Shown here piece by piece: positions 25,609 to 32,000 of a stretch of DNA of 32,000 nt. The notes under the pieces were generated by a model, which was not told where the DNA came from, did not search any database, and saw nothing but the letters and a program-made list of their open reading frames with translations. Numbering within the stretch: the first letter of the stretch is position 1; each line of letters begins with the position of its first letter. The DNA is from Deferrisoma camini S3R1 (GTDB lineage: Bacteria > Desulfobacterota > Deferrisomatia > Deferrisomatales > Deferrisomataceae), in NCBI RefSeq assembly GCF_000526155.1, contig NZ_JAFN01000001.1:3070264-3102263 (forward strand), in the 5' to 3' direction. The position numbers and the translations under genes are program-made.

Positions 25609-27480
25609 TCACCCCCTTCGGCCCAGGGCCTCCAGGACCCACTCGGCGAGCCGGTCGTACACCTGGGCCGCGGCCTCGTCCACGTGGGGGCCGAGGCACT
25701 GCTCCTCGACCCGCTCCAGGTACCCGGCCCAGGCCCGCTCCAAGGCCACGGCCACCCCGGCCCGCCGGGCCGCCCCGCCCACCGCTCCGCCGGGCAGGAG
25801 CCGCTGCCACAGCCCCCCCGGCCGGCCCGGGCCCACCGTGCCCCGGAACAGGGGGATCTTCCGGGTGGCCGTGATCTCCCGGACCAGGGCCCGGCGATCG
25901 GGCGGAGGCGGAGGCCTCAGGCCGGCCCGGGCCAACGCCTCGGCCGCCTGCCGGGCCAGGTCCTCGCCCGCCCGGGCCAGGGCGGCCCGGGCCTCCAGGG
26001 CCAGGTTGCGCACCGCGTTCACCCGCAGGGGCTCGGTGGCCGCGAGCACGGCCTCGACCCGGTCGCGGTAGTCCGCCGCCGCAGGGTCGAGGGACGCCAC
26101 CCGTCCGGCCCAGGCCCGGCGGTGGGGTGCCCGGCGGCGGCCGAACCCGGAGCGAAGCCCCGCGGAGATCCCCGCCTTGGCCTGCCGGGCCGCGGCCTCC
26201 ATGCGCTCGGAGAGCCACCCCAGGAGCGCGTCGGCCGTGTCGGCCCGCCAGGGCCCCCGGCCCAGGCCGAGGGCCGTGCCGGCGCCCAAGGCCCGCCCCG
26301 CCTCCGCCACGACCCGCCGCAGGTCGGCCCGGCACCGGGCCAGGATCAGCCGGTCCCGCCGAGCGGCCACCTCGTCCCACAGCTCGTCCCGGAACGACCG
26401 GAACGCGTCCCGCAGGATCGGCGTGAGGGCCGAGGACTCCCACGCCTCCCGCAGCCGGGCCTCGCCGGCCGAGAGACCGGCCGGATTCGTCAGGGCCAGC
26501 CGGTCCAGGAGCCCGAGCAGGGCCGAGACCACGGCCGGCCGGCCGGCCACGCCCAGCCCCCGCAGGTGCCGAACCACCGACTCCTCCACCCGGCGCAGGT
26601 GCTCGGGCCGGCCCAGCTCGGACAGGTCGGCGTTCAGCACGAACCGGGTGACCCCCAGGAGCCCGTACCCCTGCAGGACCTCCAGGAACCGCAGGTCCGC
26701 CTCCCGGAGCCCCACCCGGCCCGAGATCACGTACACCACGGCGTGGGCGTCGAGGAGGGCCCGGTCCACCACGGCGCCGTGGGCCGCGTTCCAGGCGTCC
26801 ACGCCGGGGCAGTCGGCCAGCACCACCCCCTCGGGCAGGTCGGGCGCGGGCACGTCCACCCACACCCGGCTCAGGAACGCGGCCACCTCGTCCCGGGCCA
26901 CCCAGGCCCACAGATCGCCGTGCGCCCCCAGGTCCTCGACCCGGGGCTCCGGCCCCACCCGGTCGGCCGCGGCCTCGGCCCCCCGGACCAGGGCCCCCAA
27001 CGCCTCCCGAAGGGGCGAGGGCGGCCCGTCCAGCAGGGCCCGGGCCGCGCGCCGGTGGTCGGGGTTCCACAGGTCCCAGTCCCCCGGCCGGCCCAACGCC
27101 TCCAGGTGCAGGCCGAACGCCCGGTTCACCTCGGCCCGGCTCCTCCAGGTGATGCGGACCGCCGCCCGGTCCGCCGGCACCACCTCGGTCACCTGGGCCG
27201 TGAGCACCCCCGAGCCCCGGGGCAGCAGGTCCCGGCCCACCAGGGCGTTGGCCAGGGTGGACTTGCCCGACTTCACGGCCCCCACCAGGGCCACCCGCAC
27301 CCGGGCCTCGCAGGCCCGCCGGGCCGCGGCGTCCAGGTCCGCGAGCCATCCGGCCGCCCGGTCCGCCAGATCCGGCCGGGAGGCGGCGAGGGTCCGGAGC
27401 CTCTCCCGGGCCTCGGCCACGGCCCGCTCCACCTCGGCCCGCAGCCGCGCCTCCCGGGCCTGGCGCAGCGGCTCGGTCAC
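25609..27480 (-). CDS. Dynamin-family (bacterial dynamin-like) GTPase, soluble
   Basis: GTG at 27480 overlaps the Nudix stop (GTGA). G1 GAVKSGKST, G3 DCPGVD, degenerate G4 LNADL. Long Arg/Ala-rich helical stalk. No TM segment seen. Confidence 0.8.
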   Translation of the reverse strand: MTEPLRQAREARLRAEVERAVAEARERLRTLAASRPDLADRAAGWLADLDAAARRACEARVRVALVGAVKSGKSTLANALVGRDLLPRGSGVLTAQVTEVVPADRAAVRITWRSRAEVNRAFGLHLEALGRPGDWDLWNPDHRRAARALLDGPPSPLREALGALVRGAEAAADRVGPEPRVEDLGAHGDLWAWVARDEVAAFLSRVWVDVPAPDLPEGVVLADCPGVDAWNAAHGAVVDRALLDAHAVVYVISGRVGLREADLRFLEVLQGYGLLGVTRFVLNADLSELGRPEHLRRVEESVVRHLRGLGVAGRPAVVSALLGLLDRLALTNPAGLSAGEARLREAWESSALTPILRDAFRSFRDELWDEVAARRDRLILARCRADLRRVVAEAGRALGAGTALGLGRGPWRADTADALLGWLSERMEAAARQAKAGISAGLRSGFGRRRAPHRRAWAGRVASLDPAAADYRDRVEAVLAATEPLRVNAVRNLALEARAALARAGEDLARQAAEALARAGLRPPPPPDRRALVREITATRKIPLFRGTVGPGRPGGLWQRLLPGGAVGGAARRAGVAVALERAWAGYLERVEEQCLGPHVDEAAAQVYDRLAEWVLEALGRRG

Positions 27481-28097
27481 CGGCCCTCCCGGTGGAGGGC
27501 CCAGGCCAGCTCGGACCACAGCTCGAACCCAGCCCCCTCGGGAAGGGCCCCGGCGGGGTCGCCCGGGGGGGCCCACCGGTGGCCCCGCAGCTCACCGTCC
27601 CCGTCCCGGGCCGTGGCCGGGTCCACCGTGAGCCGGCAGCACACCCCCACGTGCACCCGACCCACCTCGGACTCGTCCTCGCTGATCAGCCCCACCACCT
27701 CCAGGCCGCCCAGCCACCGCACGGGGTACTCCTCCTCCACCTCCCGCCGGGCGGCCCGGGCCAGGAGCTTCGGCCCGGGGGCCTCGTCGCCGGCCGCGTC
27801 GGCCCGGTCGATGTGCCCGCCGATCCCCAGGCTCCAGAAGGCGTGGAGCCGCGCCTCGGTGCCCTGACGGGGGTAGACCAGCACCCGCCCGTCCGGGTCG
27901 AACACCGTGACGTAGGGGATCACCTGCTTCCACTCCGGGTCGGTCTCGGCCTCGGGCCGGGGCATCCACCGGGCCCGATCCAGGCCCAGCAGCCCGGCCG
28001 CCTCGGTCCAGGACCCGGCCGCGACCCAGGCCCGGGGGGCCTGCAGCGCCGGGTGCAGGGCGGTTCGGGGAACGACGAGAATCCTCTGGCTCTTCAT
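27477..28097 (-). CDS. Nudix-fold phosphoesterase of the YmaB/COG4112 type
   Basis: ATG at 28097 with GGAGG SD. WKQVIPYV, LHAFWSLGIGGHI, Nudix box remnant AARREVEEE and EVGRVHVGV, matching the COG4112 pattern as I remember it. Confidence 0.78.
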   Translation of the reverse strand: MKSQRILVVPRTALHPALQAPRAWVAAGSWTEAAGLLGLDRARWMPRPEAETDPEWKQVIPYVTVFDPDGRVLVYPRQGTEARLHAFWSLGIGGHIDRADAAGDEAPGPKLLARAARREVEEEYPVRWLGGLEVVGLISEDESEVGRVHVGVCCRLTVDPATARDGDGELRGHRWAPPGDPAGALPEGAGFELWSELAWALHREGR

Positions 28098-28162: not shown

Positions 28163-28209
28163 GGCACCAGAAGGGCCGGCCCTGATTGAGGGCCGGCCCT
28201 TCTGGTGCC
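28163..28209 (-). terminator. 20-bp perfect GC-rich hairpin (7-nt loop) immediately 3' of the small peptide ORF
   Basis: GGCACCAGAAGGGCCGGCCC (28163-28182) pairs perfectly with GGGCCGGCCCTTCTGGTGCC (28190-28209). No U-tract, so it could be a terminator, attenuator or RNA-stability element. Confidence 0.7.
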
Positions 28210-28216
28210 TCCAACG

Positions 28217-28279
28217 TCAGCAGGGATGGACGCTGGAGGTTCCCGCGATGCGGGGCTTTACGTAGGGGATCTTCTTCAT
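28217..28279 (-). CDS. 20-aa candidate precursor peptide MKKIPYVKPRIAGTSSVHPC
   Basis: The ATG (28279) overlaps the radical-SAM stop (ATGA). AAGGAGG lies 6 nt upstream. The ORF is followed 7 nt later by the 20-bp hairpin. The genomic context (PqqD + rSAM/SPASM) is typical of peptide substrates. Confidence 0.7.
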   Translation of the reverse strand: MKKIPYVKPRIAGTSSVHPC

Positions 28280-29328
28280 GGCGGTCCTCCTTGGGGCCGG
28301 CCGTTCCCGGCCCAGCAGTGGGGATCGGGGGCGTTGAACGAGCCCGTGGCCGCGAACGCCCGGGCGGTGCACCCGCCCAGACACTCGCCGTACACCCCGC
28401 AGGAGCGGCACTTGCCCTCCGGGGTCTTCTCGCGCATCTTCCGCAGCACCGGTGAGGTGCGCCACAGCACGTCCAGGGGCTGATCGATCAGGTTTCCGGC
28501 CGACACCGGGATGAACCCGCACGGGGTCACCTCGCCGTCGGGCTCCAGGTGCAGCGAGAGCTTGCCGCAGGTGCTGCCCTTCACGGCCCCGGGATCGGCC
28601 CCGCCCAGCAGGGCCAGGATCGGGTCGTCGAACGACAGCTCGGCCGGCGCCCGGGGCCGCCAGGCCAGGGCGTCCTCGTAGAAGGCCCGCCACTCGCCGG
28701 GCGAGAGATCGAGCTCCGCCCGGTTCTCGGCGCCCCGGCCCGCGCACTTGAAGTTGTGCAGGTACACCGTGGTCGCCCCCCGCTCGGCCGCGAGCTCCAC
28801 GATCCGGCGGTACGAGCCCACGTTGTTCCGGTGGATCACGGCCGACACCGTGGACGTCACCCCGGCGGCCCGCAGGTGCTCCAGGGCGGCCAGGGCCCGA
28901 TCGAAGCTACCCGGCCGGGCCCGGAACGCGTCGTGCACCTCGGCCGTGGCCCCGTCGAGGCTCACCCCCACCGAGGCGAACCCCGCGGCCCGGGCCCGCC
29001 GGGCCGCCTCGGCGTCCAGGAGCCACCCGTTGGTGTTCATGCTGACCCGCAGGCCCCGGTCCGCCGCGGCCCGGGCCACCTCCCACAGGTGGGGGTAGCA
29101 CAGCGGCTCGCCCCCCCCGAAGTTCACGAACAGCACCCGGCACCGGGCAAGCTCCTCCACCAGGCCCAGCACCCGCTCCAAGGGGAGCTCCGACCGCGCC
29201 TGGCCGCGGGAGTAGCAGTGCCGGCACGAGAAGTTGCAGGTGTAGGACAGGGTCCAGTTGACGGTGAGGGGTGCGGTGAGCTCCACGGTCAGGCGTCCTC
29301 GGCCACGAGCCAGCCCCGGCTCAGGCAC
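28276..29328 (-). CDS. Radical SAM enzyme with a full C-terminal SPASM domain (peptide-modifying maturase type)
   Basis: CNFSCRHC (CxxxCxxC). SPASM pattern C-x10-G-x4-C ... CRSC-x5-C-x3-C ... C. An alternative GTG at 29286, 2 nt after the PqqD stop, would give a 337-codon gene. Confidence 0.92.
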   Translation of the reverse strand: MPEPGLARGRGRLTVELTAPLTVNWTLSYTCNFSCRHCYSRGQARSELPLERVLGLVEELARCRVLFVNFGGGEPLCYPHLWEVARAAADRGLRVSMNTNGWLLDAEAARRARAAGFASVGVSLDGATAEVHDAFRARPGSFDRALAALEHLRAAGVTSTVSAVIHRNNVGSYRRIVELAAERGATTVYLHNFKCAGRGAENRAELDLSPGEWRAFYEDALAWRPRAPAELSFDDPILALLGGADPGAVKGSTCGKLSLHLEPDGEVTPCGFIPVSAGNLIDQPLDVLWRTSPVLRKMREKTPEGKCRSCGVYGECLGGCTARAFAATGSFNAPDPHCWAGNGRPQGGPP

Positions 29329-29609
29329 TCGGCCACGAACGCCTCCACGTCCTCGCGGATCTCGTCGGCCGGGGCGTCGTACCGGCCCGCCAGCTCGGCC
29401 GCGATGGCGGCGGCGTCCCGGGTGCCGTCGGCCAGGAGCCAGATCTCCCCGGCCAGGAGGTTCAGCTGGTGCATCCGACCGGCGTGGACCAGGATCACCC
29501 AGCCCTCGTCGGCCACGTCCTCGCCCCGCTCCAGGGCGGCGAGGATCCGCTCCCGGGCCCCGGGCTCGTCGCGCCAGGCCAGCGAAGGGTTTCGGCGAAG
29601 CACGGTCAC
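29289..29609 (-). CDS. Stand-alone PqqD-family peptide-binding (RRE) protein
   Basis: 106 aa. LNLLAGEIWLLADGTRDAAAIAAELAGRYDAPADEIREDVEAFVAECLSRGWL fits the PqqD family pattern. GTG start 5 nt after the upstream lipoprotein stop. Confidence 0.85.
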   Translation of the reverse strand: MTVLRRNPSLAWRDEPGARERILAALERGEDVADEGWVILVHAGRMHQLNLLAGEIWLLADGTRDAAAIAAELAGRYDAPADEIREDVEAFVAECLSRGWLVAEDA

Positions 29610-29614
29610 GGCGG

Positions 29615-30487
29615 CTACTTCTTCCTTTCCGGCGTGCCCCAGGGGACGGGCAGCCGGGGCTCCACGTTCACCCGGCCCACCCCTTCGGAGTCGGCGCCGT
29701 CGAAGATCCGGTCGGCGAGCCGGCCCTTCTCGTCGGCCTTCCACCAGTTGTTTCCGGCGTCCACGTCGTCGGTCTGGGCCTCGCCGAGCTTCAGATCGTA
29801 CTCCCGATCGTCGAAGTTGTTTCGCCGCAGCACCGCGCCGGTCACGCCCTGCCGGAAGAAGATGCCGGTGAGGTTGCCCACGAACCAGTTCTCCTCGATC
29901 ACCGGCGAGCTGTTGAGGCACCGGATCCCGATCCGGTTCTCCTCGAACCGGCACCCCCGGATCACCACCCGGCCCCCCTGGAACCGCACCCCGCCGTAGT
30001 TGTTGCGGAACGTGCAGTCCTCGAACTCCACCGGGGTGAAGTGGCTGTGCACGGCCCACGGGCCCCGCTCGAACACCACCCGCCGCAGGTGGGCCTCCTT
30101 GGCCTTTTCGAAGGAGATCACGTCCTCGAACTCGTTGTTGCGCAGGGGCACCGAGGTGATCTCGATCGGCGCCTCCGGCGTGCCCAGGGCCACCAGGCTC
30201 CCCAGCACCCGGATCCACGGCTCCGGGTCCTCGCCGGCCTTGGGCTCGGGCAGATCGAAGTACACGCGGGTGCCGGGCAGGAGGGTCAGGGTGGCGGTCT
30301 TGGTCACGATGAGGGGCCGAACCAGCCGGACCTCCCCGCGCCACACCGTGGGGGCGTAGAGGATGTGCCGGGTCTCGGTGCGGGCCGTGGCCGGGACCGA
30401 GATCGTCTTGGGCTGGGGCAGGGTCACGCACGCCGCGAGCCCCACCGCCGTCGCCGCCCCCAGGAGCCACCATCGCCGCAGACCCAT
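29615..30487 (-). CDS. Lipoprotein with right-handed parallel beta-helix repeats (NosD/CASH-like)
   Basis: Signal peptide with lipobox GLAAC. PbH1-like repeats (FRNNYGGVRFQGG, IRGCRFEENRIGIRC, IEENWFVGNLTGIFF, LRRNNF). GGAAGGAGG SD. Confidence 0.8.
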   Translation of the reverse strand: MGLRRWWLLGAATAVGLAACVTLPQPKTISVPATARTETRHILYAPTVWRGEVRLVRPLIVTKTATLTLLPGTRVYFDLPEPKAGEDPEPWIRVLGSLVALGTPEAPIEITSVPLRNNEFEDVISFEKAKEAHLRRVVFERGPWAVHSHFTPVEFEDCTFRNNYGGVRFQGGRVVIRGCRFEENRIGIRCLNSSPVIEENWFVGNLTGIFFRQGVTGAVLRRNNFDDREYDLKLGEAQTDDVDAGNNWWKADEKGRLADRIFDGADSEGVGRVNVEPRLPVPWGTPERKK

Positions 30488-30656: not shown

Positions 30657-31715
30657 TCAATGGGACCGGGCCGAGGCGCCCAGACCCAGGAGCGCAGCCA
30701 GCCCGACCAGCACCGCCACCTTCCCGGCCGCCGGCACTCCGGCGGCCGACGCGCCCAAGCCCCAAACCTGCACGAGCACCGCGCCCGCGCCCATGCCCAC
30801 CACCGTGGCGGCCGCGTCCAGGTCGCCCTCGCCGGCCCGCACGATCTGCCGGAACGGACACCCGCCCGCCACCACGGCGGCCGCGCCCACCAGCCCCATC
30901 CCCAAAAAGCTCCACAGCCACTCCAGGTGGGCGCCGGGCTGGTCATAATAGCCAAGCCGGAACTGACCCGTAAACCCGTCGGCCAACCCGGCCGCCGCGA
31001 GCAGCCCTCCCAGGGCCAGGACCGCCCCCGGGCTGCGCACGAGCAGGATGTCGCGCACCGACCCGGTGATGCAGAACCGCGATCGCTGACAGGCGACCCC
31101 GATCGCCAACCCCGCGGCCAGGCTGATCCAGACCGGGGCGTGGAGCGCCCCGGGCCCGCTCCGGCTCTCCAGCAGGATCCCCGGCCGGAACAGGAGAGCC
31201 GTGAGGACCAGGGCCCCCACGACCAGCCCTGCGGGCACCAGCCACGGCACCGGCCGGGCCCGGCCGCCGCCATCCAGGTCGCCCCGCCGAACCAGGCGGA
31301 GCCCCCCCCACACCCCGGCCACCAGGCCCACCGCCCCGGCCACGGCGGTCAGGTCCCCGGCGGCGAGCCGCAACATCATCTTGATCGGGCAGCCGATGAA
31401 CACGGCCGAGCCCACGATCATCAGGAGCCCCAGGCCCAGCAGGTGGGCCCCGGCCGCTCGGGCCCGCGGCCGGAACTCCCGCGCGGCCAGGGCGGCGGCG
31501 GCACTGCCCAGGAAGAACCCCAGGAGCTCGGGCCGCAGGTACCGCATGCGGGGGTTGGGGTGCAGCCCCAGGGCGCCCACCGCGTTCTCCAGGAAGCACG
31601 AGATGCAGATCCCCGTGTTCGGCGGATTGCCCCAGTAGGCCAGGAGGCTGCCGAACAGCCCCATCAGGAGCCCGGCGGCCACGATCCACCCGTGCCGGGC
31701 CAGTCTCCCCCTCAT
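30657..31715 (-). CDS. yedE: YedE/YeeE-family transporter (putative selenium/sulfur-compound transporter)
   Basis: 352 aa polytopic protein. N-terminal YWGNPPNTGICISCFLENAVGALGLH and later GGCPFRQ match the YedE selenium-metabolism subfamily as I recall it. Confidence 0.8.
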   Translation of the reverse strand: MRGRLARHGWIVAAGLLMGLFGSLLAYWGNPPNTGICISCFLENAVGALGLHPNPRMRYLRPELLGFFLGSAAAALAAREFRPRARAAGAHLLGLGLLMIVGSAVFIGCPIKMMLRLAAGDLTAVAGAVGLVAGVWGGLRLVRRGDLDGGGRARPVPWLVPAGLVVGALVLTALLFRPGILLESRSGPGALHAPVWISLAAGLAIGVACQRSRFCITGSVRDILLVRSPGAVLALGGLLAAAGLADGFTGQFRLGYYDQPGAHLEWLWSFLGMGLVGAAAVVAGGCPFRQIVRAGEGDLDAAATVVGMGAGAVLVQVWGLGASAAGVPAAGKVAVLVGLAALLGLGASARSH

Positions 31716-32000
31716 TCGCACCCCCCCGCCAGCCGGCGCTGGAGGGCGTAGAGCTCTCGGATCTCCGGCGGCCGTCGGGTCGCCCACGGCCCCTTCCGGA
31801 TCGAAGCCAGCCGCTCGGCCATGCGCTCGCCCGACCGGAACGGTCCGTTCCGGTCGGCCACGGCCGGGTTCTCGTCCACGGCCCGGCCGTAGGCCCGCAC
31901 CGCCTCGGCCCACGCCCCCTGGCGGTAGGCCGCCTCGCCCAGCCAGAACCACGCCCACGCAGGGTACGGCCCGGAGCGGGCCCTCTGTCGAAGATCCAGC
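31712..32000 (-). CDS. TPR-repeat protein, C-terminal part (5' end outside window)
   Basis: The frame stays open to the window edge. WFWLGEAAYRQGAWAEAVRAYGRAVDENP is a canonical TPR motif. Stop overlaps the yedE ATG (ATGA). Confidence 0.6.
   Translation of the reverse strand, partial: LDLRQRARSGPYPAWAWFWLGEAAYRQGAWAEAVRAYGRAVDENPAVADRNGPFRSGERMAERLASIRKGPWATRRPPEIRELYALQRRLAGGCE

Follow-up and report, generated by a model that had tools for sequence, protein, structure and literature searches.

Here we describe a 20-codon gene of Deferrisoma camini S3R1 that is probably the precursor peptide of an adjacent radical S-adenosylmethionine (rSAM) enzyme. The stretch of DNA analysed (the window) comprises 32,000 nucleotides of contig NZ_JAFN01000001.1 (assembly GCF_000526155.1, positions 3,070,264 to 3,102,263 of the forward strand), and the mini-gene occupies positions 28217..28279 of the window, where the codons ATG AAG AAG ATC CCC TAC GTA AAG CCC CGC ATC GCG GGA ACC TCC AGC GTC CAT CCC TGC TGA translate as MKKIPYVKPRIAGTSSVHPC followed by the TGA stop. 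The open reading frame (ORF), its Shine-Dalgarno (SD) sequence and the hairpin behind it all lie on the minus strand. The peptide is the last member of an operon ordered TPR, YedE, beta-helix, PqqD, rSAM and peptide, in which the genes upstream of the rSAM gene are co-directional and tightly packed. The peptide gene is coupled to the rSAM gene in translation, its ATG (28279-28277) and the rSAM stop codon TGA (28278-28276) overlapping as ATGA, and it has a perfect SD of its own, AAGGAGG (28286..28292, minus strand), 6 nt 5′ of the ATG and within the 3′ end of the rSAM gene. Chance would give 0.02 matches to AAGGAGG-N6-ATG over the 32 kb of the window; there are two, both within the peptide's operon.

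A perfect 21-bp hairpin with a 5-nt loop, CAAUC (28163..28209, minus strand), begins 7 nt past the peptide TGA and has a folding energy of −57.8 kcal/mol (z = −6.5 against shuffled sequences). It is missed by a terminator scan because it has no U-tract, and is probably an operon-end terminator or RNA-stabilising stem that works without one. A repetitive extragenic palindromic (REP)-like element was considered as its identity and ruled out, as neither arm of the hairpin recurs elsewhere in the window. The peptide shares its frame with a 176-aa ORF that starts at GTG (28217..28747), a shadow ORF read out of frame with the rSAM gene. Judged by reading its sequence, the peptide has no signal sequence. 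Rfam gave no match to the window at the gathering threshold, and no tRNAs were found in the window. The initial annotation, made from the sequence alone, had noted the ATGA overlap, the SD within the rSAM gene, the position of the ORF in the tail of a longer one and a hairpin 7 nt past the stop; each of these features is as described, with the stem one base pair longer than the 20 bp then counted.

The rSAM gene (28276..29286, minus strand) encodes a GeoRSP-type radical SAM/SPASM maturase of 336 aa, starting at GTG 29286, that matches NCBIfam TIGR04303 as well as the Pfam Radical_SAM and SPASM domains. The TIGR04303 match spans the full model at 394.5 bits (cut-off 400) and is the best by 180 bits, the second-best NCBIfam match being the mycofactocin enzyme MftC at 213.7 bits; among solved structures, PqqE (6c8v) comes closest. 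Next to it lies a gene for a 106-aa PqqD-family peptide chaperone (29289..29609, minus strand), a domain of the RiPP recognition element (RRE) type, where RiPP stands for ribosomally synthesised and post-translationally modified peptide. Its best match is TIGR04302 (71.8 bits, cut-off 100), it scores 61.6 bits against PF05402 (cut-off 23.4), and its closest solved structure is the PqqD entry 3g2b of the Protein Data Bank. The rSAM-PqqD pair claimed in the initial annotation is therefore a full SPASM rSAM enzyme and a PqqD-family chaperone by both NCBIfam and Pfam. That both proteins narrowly miss the curated cut-offs is probably why NCBI gives the rSAM enzyme a merely generic name; NCBI and JGI use the name GeoRSP for orthologues that share 55-78% identity and the gene order. 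GeoRSP is a named but orphan rSAM/PqqD system, whose PqqD protein NCBI labels a “peptide chaperone”, and it is found in Desulfuromonadales, Deferrisomatales and other anaerobes, among them metal- and sulfur-respiring bacteria. It is defined by three proteins (TIGR04302 PqqD, TIGR04303 rSAM/SPASM and TIGR04304 SPASM-domain protein), and no NCBIfam or Pfam model matches the present peptide. The window's rSAM and PqqD proteins match this system best and share its YedE synteny; however, their scores fall below the cut-offs and the third protein is absent, a tblastn search of the window for TIGR04304 matching only the rSAM enzyme's own SPASM domain. The D. camini locus is thus either a member of the GeoRSP system or a borderline case of it.

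For comparative analysis, 12 GeoRSP rSAM proteins were aligned and 80 loci were fetched from species-representative genomes, 77 of which were evaluable. A homologous ORF of 17-20 aa lies directly downstream of the orthologous rSAM gene, on the same strand, in 53 of the 80 genomes (53 of 77 evaluable loci), in addition to the window itself, and the family consensus is MKKYxKPRVVGSSNVHPC-stop. When a profile of the peptide was searched against every stop-to-stop ORF in the six frames of all loci, 54 matches were obtained at E ≤ 1e-8, every one directly downstream of an rSAM gene, and the next best match had E = 0.27; nothing better than this was found as a divergent peptide in the rSAM loci that lack a copy, and profile searching of the loci recovered no other conserved candidate small ORF. 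Most members are 18 aa long (47 loci), the remainder being 19 aa (3), 20 aa (3) or 17 aa (1). Met1, Tyr, the Pro of the K-P motif and the terminal His-Pro-Cys are invariant, with Cys always the last codon, and Lys, Gly and Val positions are conserved at 90% or more. In-frame stops one or two codons 5′ of the ATG in several loci fix the start. An SD core precedes 53 of the 54 family members, and the stop is followed by hairpins that are GC-rich, often carry a T-run and are unrelated to one another: 46 of 54 have a minimum free energy (MFE) of −15 kcal/mol or lower within 60 nt, with a median MFE of −23.8 kcal/mol and a median z of −3.7. The spacer between rSAM gene and peptide shows no conservation, ranging from −4 to 202 nt, and only D. 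camini, its 97%-identical relative L001, and L073 have the ATGA overlap.

The pattern of substitution in these ORFs is that of a gene selected for its protein product. The fraction of non-consensus bases is 0.095, 0.089 and 0.414 at codon positions 1, 2 and 3, the third position being about four times more variable, and pairwise codon comparisons give 7638 synonymous against 3849 non-synonymous differences. A lone 20-codon ORF in DNA of 73% GC could arise by chance, but conservation in 53 genomes with selection acting on the protein indicates that this mini-ORF is almost certainly a real protein-coding gene under purifying selection. The searches that the initial annotation had proposed thus yielded an ORF at the expected place and on the expected strand, with the synonymous-site behaviour predicted. 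Of the motifs it had singled out, K-P (Pro 100%, Lys 98%) and the terminal Cys are conserved, whereas G-T-S-S is not, most members having G-S-S-N instead; its suggestion of a PqqA-like recognition motif near the N-terminus proved not to be statistically detectable, with no NCBIfam match at E ≤ 10. As a separate observation, in one Geobacteraceae metagenome-assembled genome (L015, 4668-5063) the rSAM frame continues for some 100 nt beyond the end it usually has, PDPHCWK, and overlaps the peptide out of frame, which may stem from a frameshift in the assembly or be a genuine extension.

We propose that the peptide is the precursor, and hence the substrate, of the YedE-linked GeoRSP rSAM/SPASM enzyme acting with its stand-alone PqqD chaperone, a reading to which we assign a probability of roughly 65%. 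It rests on adjacency in 53 of the 77 loci, the clean separation of the profile matches, selection on the protein, and an RRE-type PqqD and a SPASM rSAM enzyme as neighbours, as well as on the nearest characterised relatives, MftC and PqqE, which act on tiny cofactor-precursor peptides. A substrate role for the peptide is accordingly well supported by synteny, although it is not proven.

The wider gene context is similarly conserved. The core common to related loci consists of a PhnD-like periplasmic binding protein, a TPR/membrane protein, YedE, a beta-helix protein, PqqD and rSAM, and YedE lies upstream of PqqD-rSAM in nearly every related locus for which the upstream flank was fetched (L077 is an exception), so that GeoRSP is really a YedE-linked system. 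In the window, the YedE-family putative selenium/sulfur transporter (30657..31715, minus strand) matches TIGR04112 at 334.8 bits (cut-off 200), and its ATG is overlapped by the stop of the TPR/membrane protein, of which the 3′ part is present (31712..32000, minus strand; the gene runs beyond the window and ends ...RRLAGGCE). This C-terminal [RS]LAGGC[E] is conserved in 59 loci. It constitutes a second conserved near-terminal Cys of the operon, and the TPR/membrane protein with its terminal-region Cys could be a carrier or an alternative target of the enzyme. Between YedE and PqqD lies a right-handed beta-helix (NosD-like) protein (29615..30487, minus strand; PF13229 and PF05048), with a lipoprotein-type N-terminus as judged by reading the sequence and with homologues in related loci.

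Two types of locus can be distinguished. Deferrisomatales-type loci, including the window, have the beta-helix gene between YedE and PqqD and lack the SPASM-domain protein, while Desulfuromonadales-type loci add, after the peptide, the TIGR04304 SPASM-domain protein, a TIGR01977 cysteine-desulfurase/SclA-like enzyme and a small lipoprotein. The CxxxCxxC motif is absent from all 54 homologues of the TIGR04304 protein (L013-L079; for example L036, 3125-4072), which is a pseudo-rSAM, an rSAM paralogue that lost the SAM-cluster motif. Its absence from D. camini and close relatives means that it is not part of the minimal system. Downstream of the hairpin in the window are a NUDIX hydrolase gene and then a gene for a 655-aa dynamin-like GTPase (25609-28097, minus strand), a pair found behind the peptide nowhere but in the window and L001. 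The NUDIX gene has its own GGAGGA SD and starts about 65 nt past the hairpin.

Copies of the peptide also occur away from the rSAM gene. Scanning metagenome contigs with a back-translated peptide pattern gave at least 120 loci, which we use for context only because conservation among them is partly forced by the search pattern; the counts that follow refer to the matches listed. Some 36 of them are in a GeoRSP context, roughly two thirds lie away from the rSAM gene, and an SD and a terminator hairpin are kept at every copy. At least 25 or so (about 25 of those listed) start 10-55 nt past genes for giant multihaem c-type cytochromes of up to 2567 aa (among them L095, L100, L106, L108, L128, L137, L161, L165, L178, L181, L185 and L187), which have in common an unnamed C-terminal domain, F-[ST]-C-S-K-C-H-x-P-H-A...I-T-N-C...N-C-H-R...G-W, also found in L201 (1-809). 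HDIG and BI-1 genes flank about 14 copies, and about nine follow an FG-GAP protein. In about 13 GC-rich loci the genes behind the peptide encode a binding-protein-like product, a U32-family protein, probably a second such protein, and an ArsP-type permease, and together they may form another system that partners the peptide. This GC-rich lineage (L093, 1858-4344; L139, 399-3827) carries a 20-aa variant, MRKxKYVKPGVVGGSSVHPC; its U32 protein belongs to PF01136, and the presumed second U32-like gene has no Pfam match. At L205 the peptide ends a cytochrome - Big_1 operon. No peptide was found near the cytochrome-domain homologue P0207 (L206), so the cytochrome association is frequent and not universal; nor is there an adjacent peptide at the rSAM loci of P0007 and P0039, which come from assemblies other than that of L205. 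Cytochromes and peptide may be functional partners, or the ends of operons may simply be preferred sites of insertion.

Remote copies were found alongside GeoRSP in both of the two genomes checked. Geothermobacter hydrogeniphilus (GCA_002093115.1) has a GeoRSP operon of YedE-PqqD-rSAM, a 27-nt gap, the SPASM protein and the desulfurase, with no peptide; on another contig, MKVYSHPRVVGNGNVHPC, closed by a stop codon and followed by a terminator, lies after a giant-type cytochrome gene. A paralogous cytochrome in the same organism is followed by a decayed peptide copy, MSNIQHC-stop (L202, 803-829). Isolate IMCC39146 (GCA_030005635.1) has both an rSAM-adjacent copy (MKKYIKPRVVGSSNVHPC, L055) and a second, stand-alone copy between HDIG and BI-1 genes (MKRYQKPRVVGSNNVHPC and stop, L210). 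At the corresponding HDIG/BI-1 position of another assembly (L211, about 1815-1875) a frameshifted, decayed remnant of the peptide is present. Copies of the peptide have evidently been gained and lost, and the coexistence of remote copies with GeoRSP in two genomes does not contradict a substrate role and indicates that the precursor gene can be multi-copy or encoded in trans, just as PQQ (pyrroloquinoline quinone) producers can carry several copies of pqqA.

Several explanations other than a maturase substrate were weighed, and three of these leave little room once the family is compared. Spurious ORFs abound in high-GC genomes, and a 176-aa shadow ORF occupies the very frame of the peptide, yet a chance ORF is refuted by conservation in 53 genomes together with the purifying-selection signature and the conserved translation signals. 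Because the window's TGA is followed 7 nt on by a stable stem-loop in an operon that encodes YedE (TIGR04112), the codon after Cys20 might be thought to specify selenocysteine (Sec), with the hairpin as a bacterial selenocysteine insertion sequence (SECIS) and a longer Cys-Sec selenopeptide as the product. Such read-through is ruled out by a variable stop codon, which is TGA in 33, TAA in 18 and TAG in 3 of the 54 family members and TGA in 79, TAA in 30 and TAG in 11 of the metagenome matches listed, and by downstream frames that are unrelated between loci, so that read-through is not conserved; a perfect, bulge-less 21-bp stem lacking a loop G is, moreover, presumably unlike a typical bacterial SECIS. 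With any of the three stops in use, Cys is the true C-terminus in every member. It is also highly improbable that the ORF lacks any function at the peptide level and acts in cis as a leader or attenuator, or arose merely as a by-product of a terminator. Its very short length, the strong hairpin that always follows and, in Desulfuromonadales-type loci, its position between the rSAM and SPASM-domain genes would suit such a role, but amino acids are conserved while third codon positions and flanks drift, the hairpins are unrelated in sequence from one locus to the next, the downstream gene differs completely by context with the peptide ending the operon in many loci, and no Rfam family matches the window.

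A more substantial case can be made, though we consider it rather unlikely, for a stand-alone micro-protein that the rSAM enzyme does not modify and whose adjacency to the rSAM gene reflects co-regulation in place of an enzyme-substrate relationship; it could, for example, be a thiol-, metal-, haem- or sulfur-binding peptide that acts with extracellular multihaem cytochromes or in YedE-type sulfur/selenium trafficking. The observations in its favour are largely those that weigh against a substrate role. Among the 120 metagenome matches listed, 72 have no upstream GeoRSP rSAM gene despite 0.3-14 kb of upstream sequence, and these rSAM-less copies follow giant multihaem cytochromes, FG-GAP or Big_1 proteins or an HDIG gene, or precede U32-family genes. 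The roughly 25 listed copies that begin just past cytochromes with a common C-terminal domain, the copy that closes the L205 operon, and the SD and terminator that each listed copy has for itself likewise count in its favour. Twenty-four evaluable rSAM loci have no copy within about 4 kb; the closest relatives of D. camini (L002-L009) are among them, as are Geothermobacter and Rokubacteria-type loci. The joint presence of peptide and rSAM across a whole genome was examined for two genomes, the modification chemistry is a proposal, and neither a leader protease nor an exporter was seen among the scanned neighbours or recurrent gene clusters (YedE, beta-helix, PhnD-like, TPR, SPASM-domain and cysteine-desulfurase-like proteins were scanned, none of them a peptidase or ABC exporter). 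Against an unmodified micro-protein, a stand-alone PqqD/RRE beside an rSAM-SPASM enzyme implies a peptide substrate, and these loci offer no other conserved small ORF for that role. Co-regulation alone hardly explains adjacency in 53 of 80 genomes from several orders, and in both genomes tested the remote copies coexist with GeoRSP. Since the peptide lacks a signal sequence, its route to periplasmic or extracellular cytochromes would not be obvious either.

If the peptide is indeed the GeoRSP substrate, the PqqD domain would bind its basic N-terminal half, KK-Y-x-K-P-R-V-V, and present the C-terminal G-S-S-(N/S)-V-H-P-C to the rSAM enzyme, which would then abstract a hydrogen atom and modify the strictly C-terminal Cys/His-Pro region. 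Either a thioether crosslink at Cys (sacti, ranthi or NxxC type) or an oxidative decarboxylation or crosslink of the last residue, as by MftC, may result, and we find the two equally plausible.

Comparison with characterised systems places the locus near, and outside, each of them. Mycofactocin biosynthesis has a tiny precursor (MftA), a separate PqqD-type chaperone (MftB) and an rSAM-SPASM enzyme (MftC). MftC acts on the strictly C-terminal residue of MftA by oxidative decarboxylation and crosslinking, a C-terminal target that the invariant terminal Cys of the present peptide parallels. However, the window's rSAM enzyme scores below the MftC cut-off of 265 bits, the peptide ends in V-H-P-C where MftA ends in G-V-Y, no genes of the MftD, MftE or MftF type were seen, and the context is one of YedE and sulfur/selenium genes and not of nicotinoprotein dehydrogenases. 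The PQQ pathway likewise combines a peptide of about 20 residues with PqqD and an rSAM-SPASM enzyme, and it supplies the closest structures to both proteins; the N-terminus of PqqA, W-K-K-P-A-F/Y, is loosely like the peptide's Y-x-K-P-R-V. In contrast to PqqA, the peptide contains no Glu and hence no Glu-x3-Tyr core, pqqB, pqqC and pqqF genes are lacking, and the rSAM enzyme scores 119.2 bits against PqqE (cut-off 381). By architecture, then, the locus appears to work like PQQ or mycofactocin biosynthesis, while its sub-cut-off scores and different core motifs indicate that by membership it is neither.

Thioether RiPPs (sactipeptides, ranthipeptides and NxxC peptides, and the QhpC/QhpD system) also pair a short, Cys-bearing substrate with an rSAM-SPASM enzyme that has an RRE. 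QhpC is the small crosslinked subunit of a haem protein, quinohaemoprotein amine dehydrogenase, and offers a possible analogy to the cytochrome-adjacent copies of the peptide. The present system differs in having a single Cys at the very C-terminus and no leader protease or exporter in view, matches to the StsB, PapB and QhpD models are weak, and the peptide is near-invariant across orders whereas the cores of RiPP antibiotics are typically variable. A further comparison is with SbtM, a Geobacter rSAM maturase for thio(seleno)oxazole (cited in PMC13188914). SbtM resembles the GeoRSP enzyme in being an rSAM/SPASM protein from the same bacterial group that acts on peptide Cys/Sec in a selenium context, but the match to TIGR04082 reaches 100.8 bits against a cut-off of 350, the gene architecture is another one, and the peptide, given its variable stop codon, has no Sec.

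Taken with its near-invariance across orders, the occurrence of in-trans copies and the absence of a protease or exporter from the conserved neighbours, the constant link of the locus to YedE, a binding protein and a desulfurase-like enzyme gives the product the appearance of a housekeeping cofactor or carrier, comparable to PQQ or mycofactocin, and less that of an antibiotic. A more specific and distinctly tentative proposal, which we hold to be improbable as it stands, is that PQQ and mycofactocin have a third counterpart, a peptide-derived cofactor or low-molecular-weight thiol, of which the peptide is the precursor. Under this proposal the GeoRSP pair would mature the C-terminal (N/S)-V-H-P-C, YedE and the cysteine-desulfurase-like enzyme providing the sulfur or selenium, and the product would work with the giant extracellular multihaem cytochromes, behind whose genes the peptide is so often found, of metal- and sulfur-respiring Desulfuromonadota.

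The peptide represents a new, unannotated family, probably of precursor peptides for an orphan rSAM/PqqD system. Two 20-aa members submitted to family searches matched no known peptide family (Pfam at E ≤ 0.01, NCBIfam at E ≤ 10), the exact peptide sequences are absent from a collection of 15 billion proteins, and the openly searchable literature contains no mention of a GeoRSP substrate or of the peptide motif, subscription literature lying outside that search. A gene of 17-20 aa is shorter than the length limits of gene callers, and the case shows how much conserved coding sequence of fewer than 30 codons escapes annotation. As the best candidate for the missing GeoRSP substrate, the peptide makes the chemistry of this system testable with one synthetic peptide and two proteins, and there is a modest chance that it is an entry point to a new peptide-derived cofactor. 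Its near-invariance, terminal Cys and in-trans copies, along with the links to multihaem cytochromes and YedE, hint at a cofactor or carrier that may serve extracellular electron transfer or sulfur/selenium metabolism in these bacteria.

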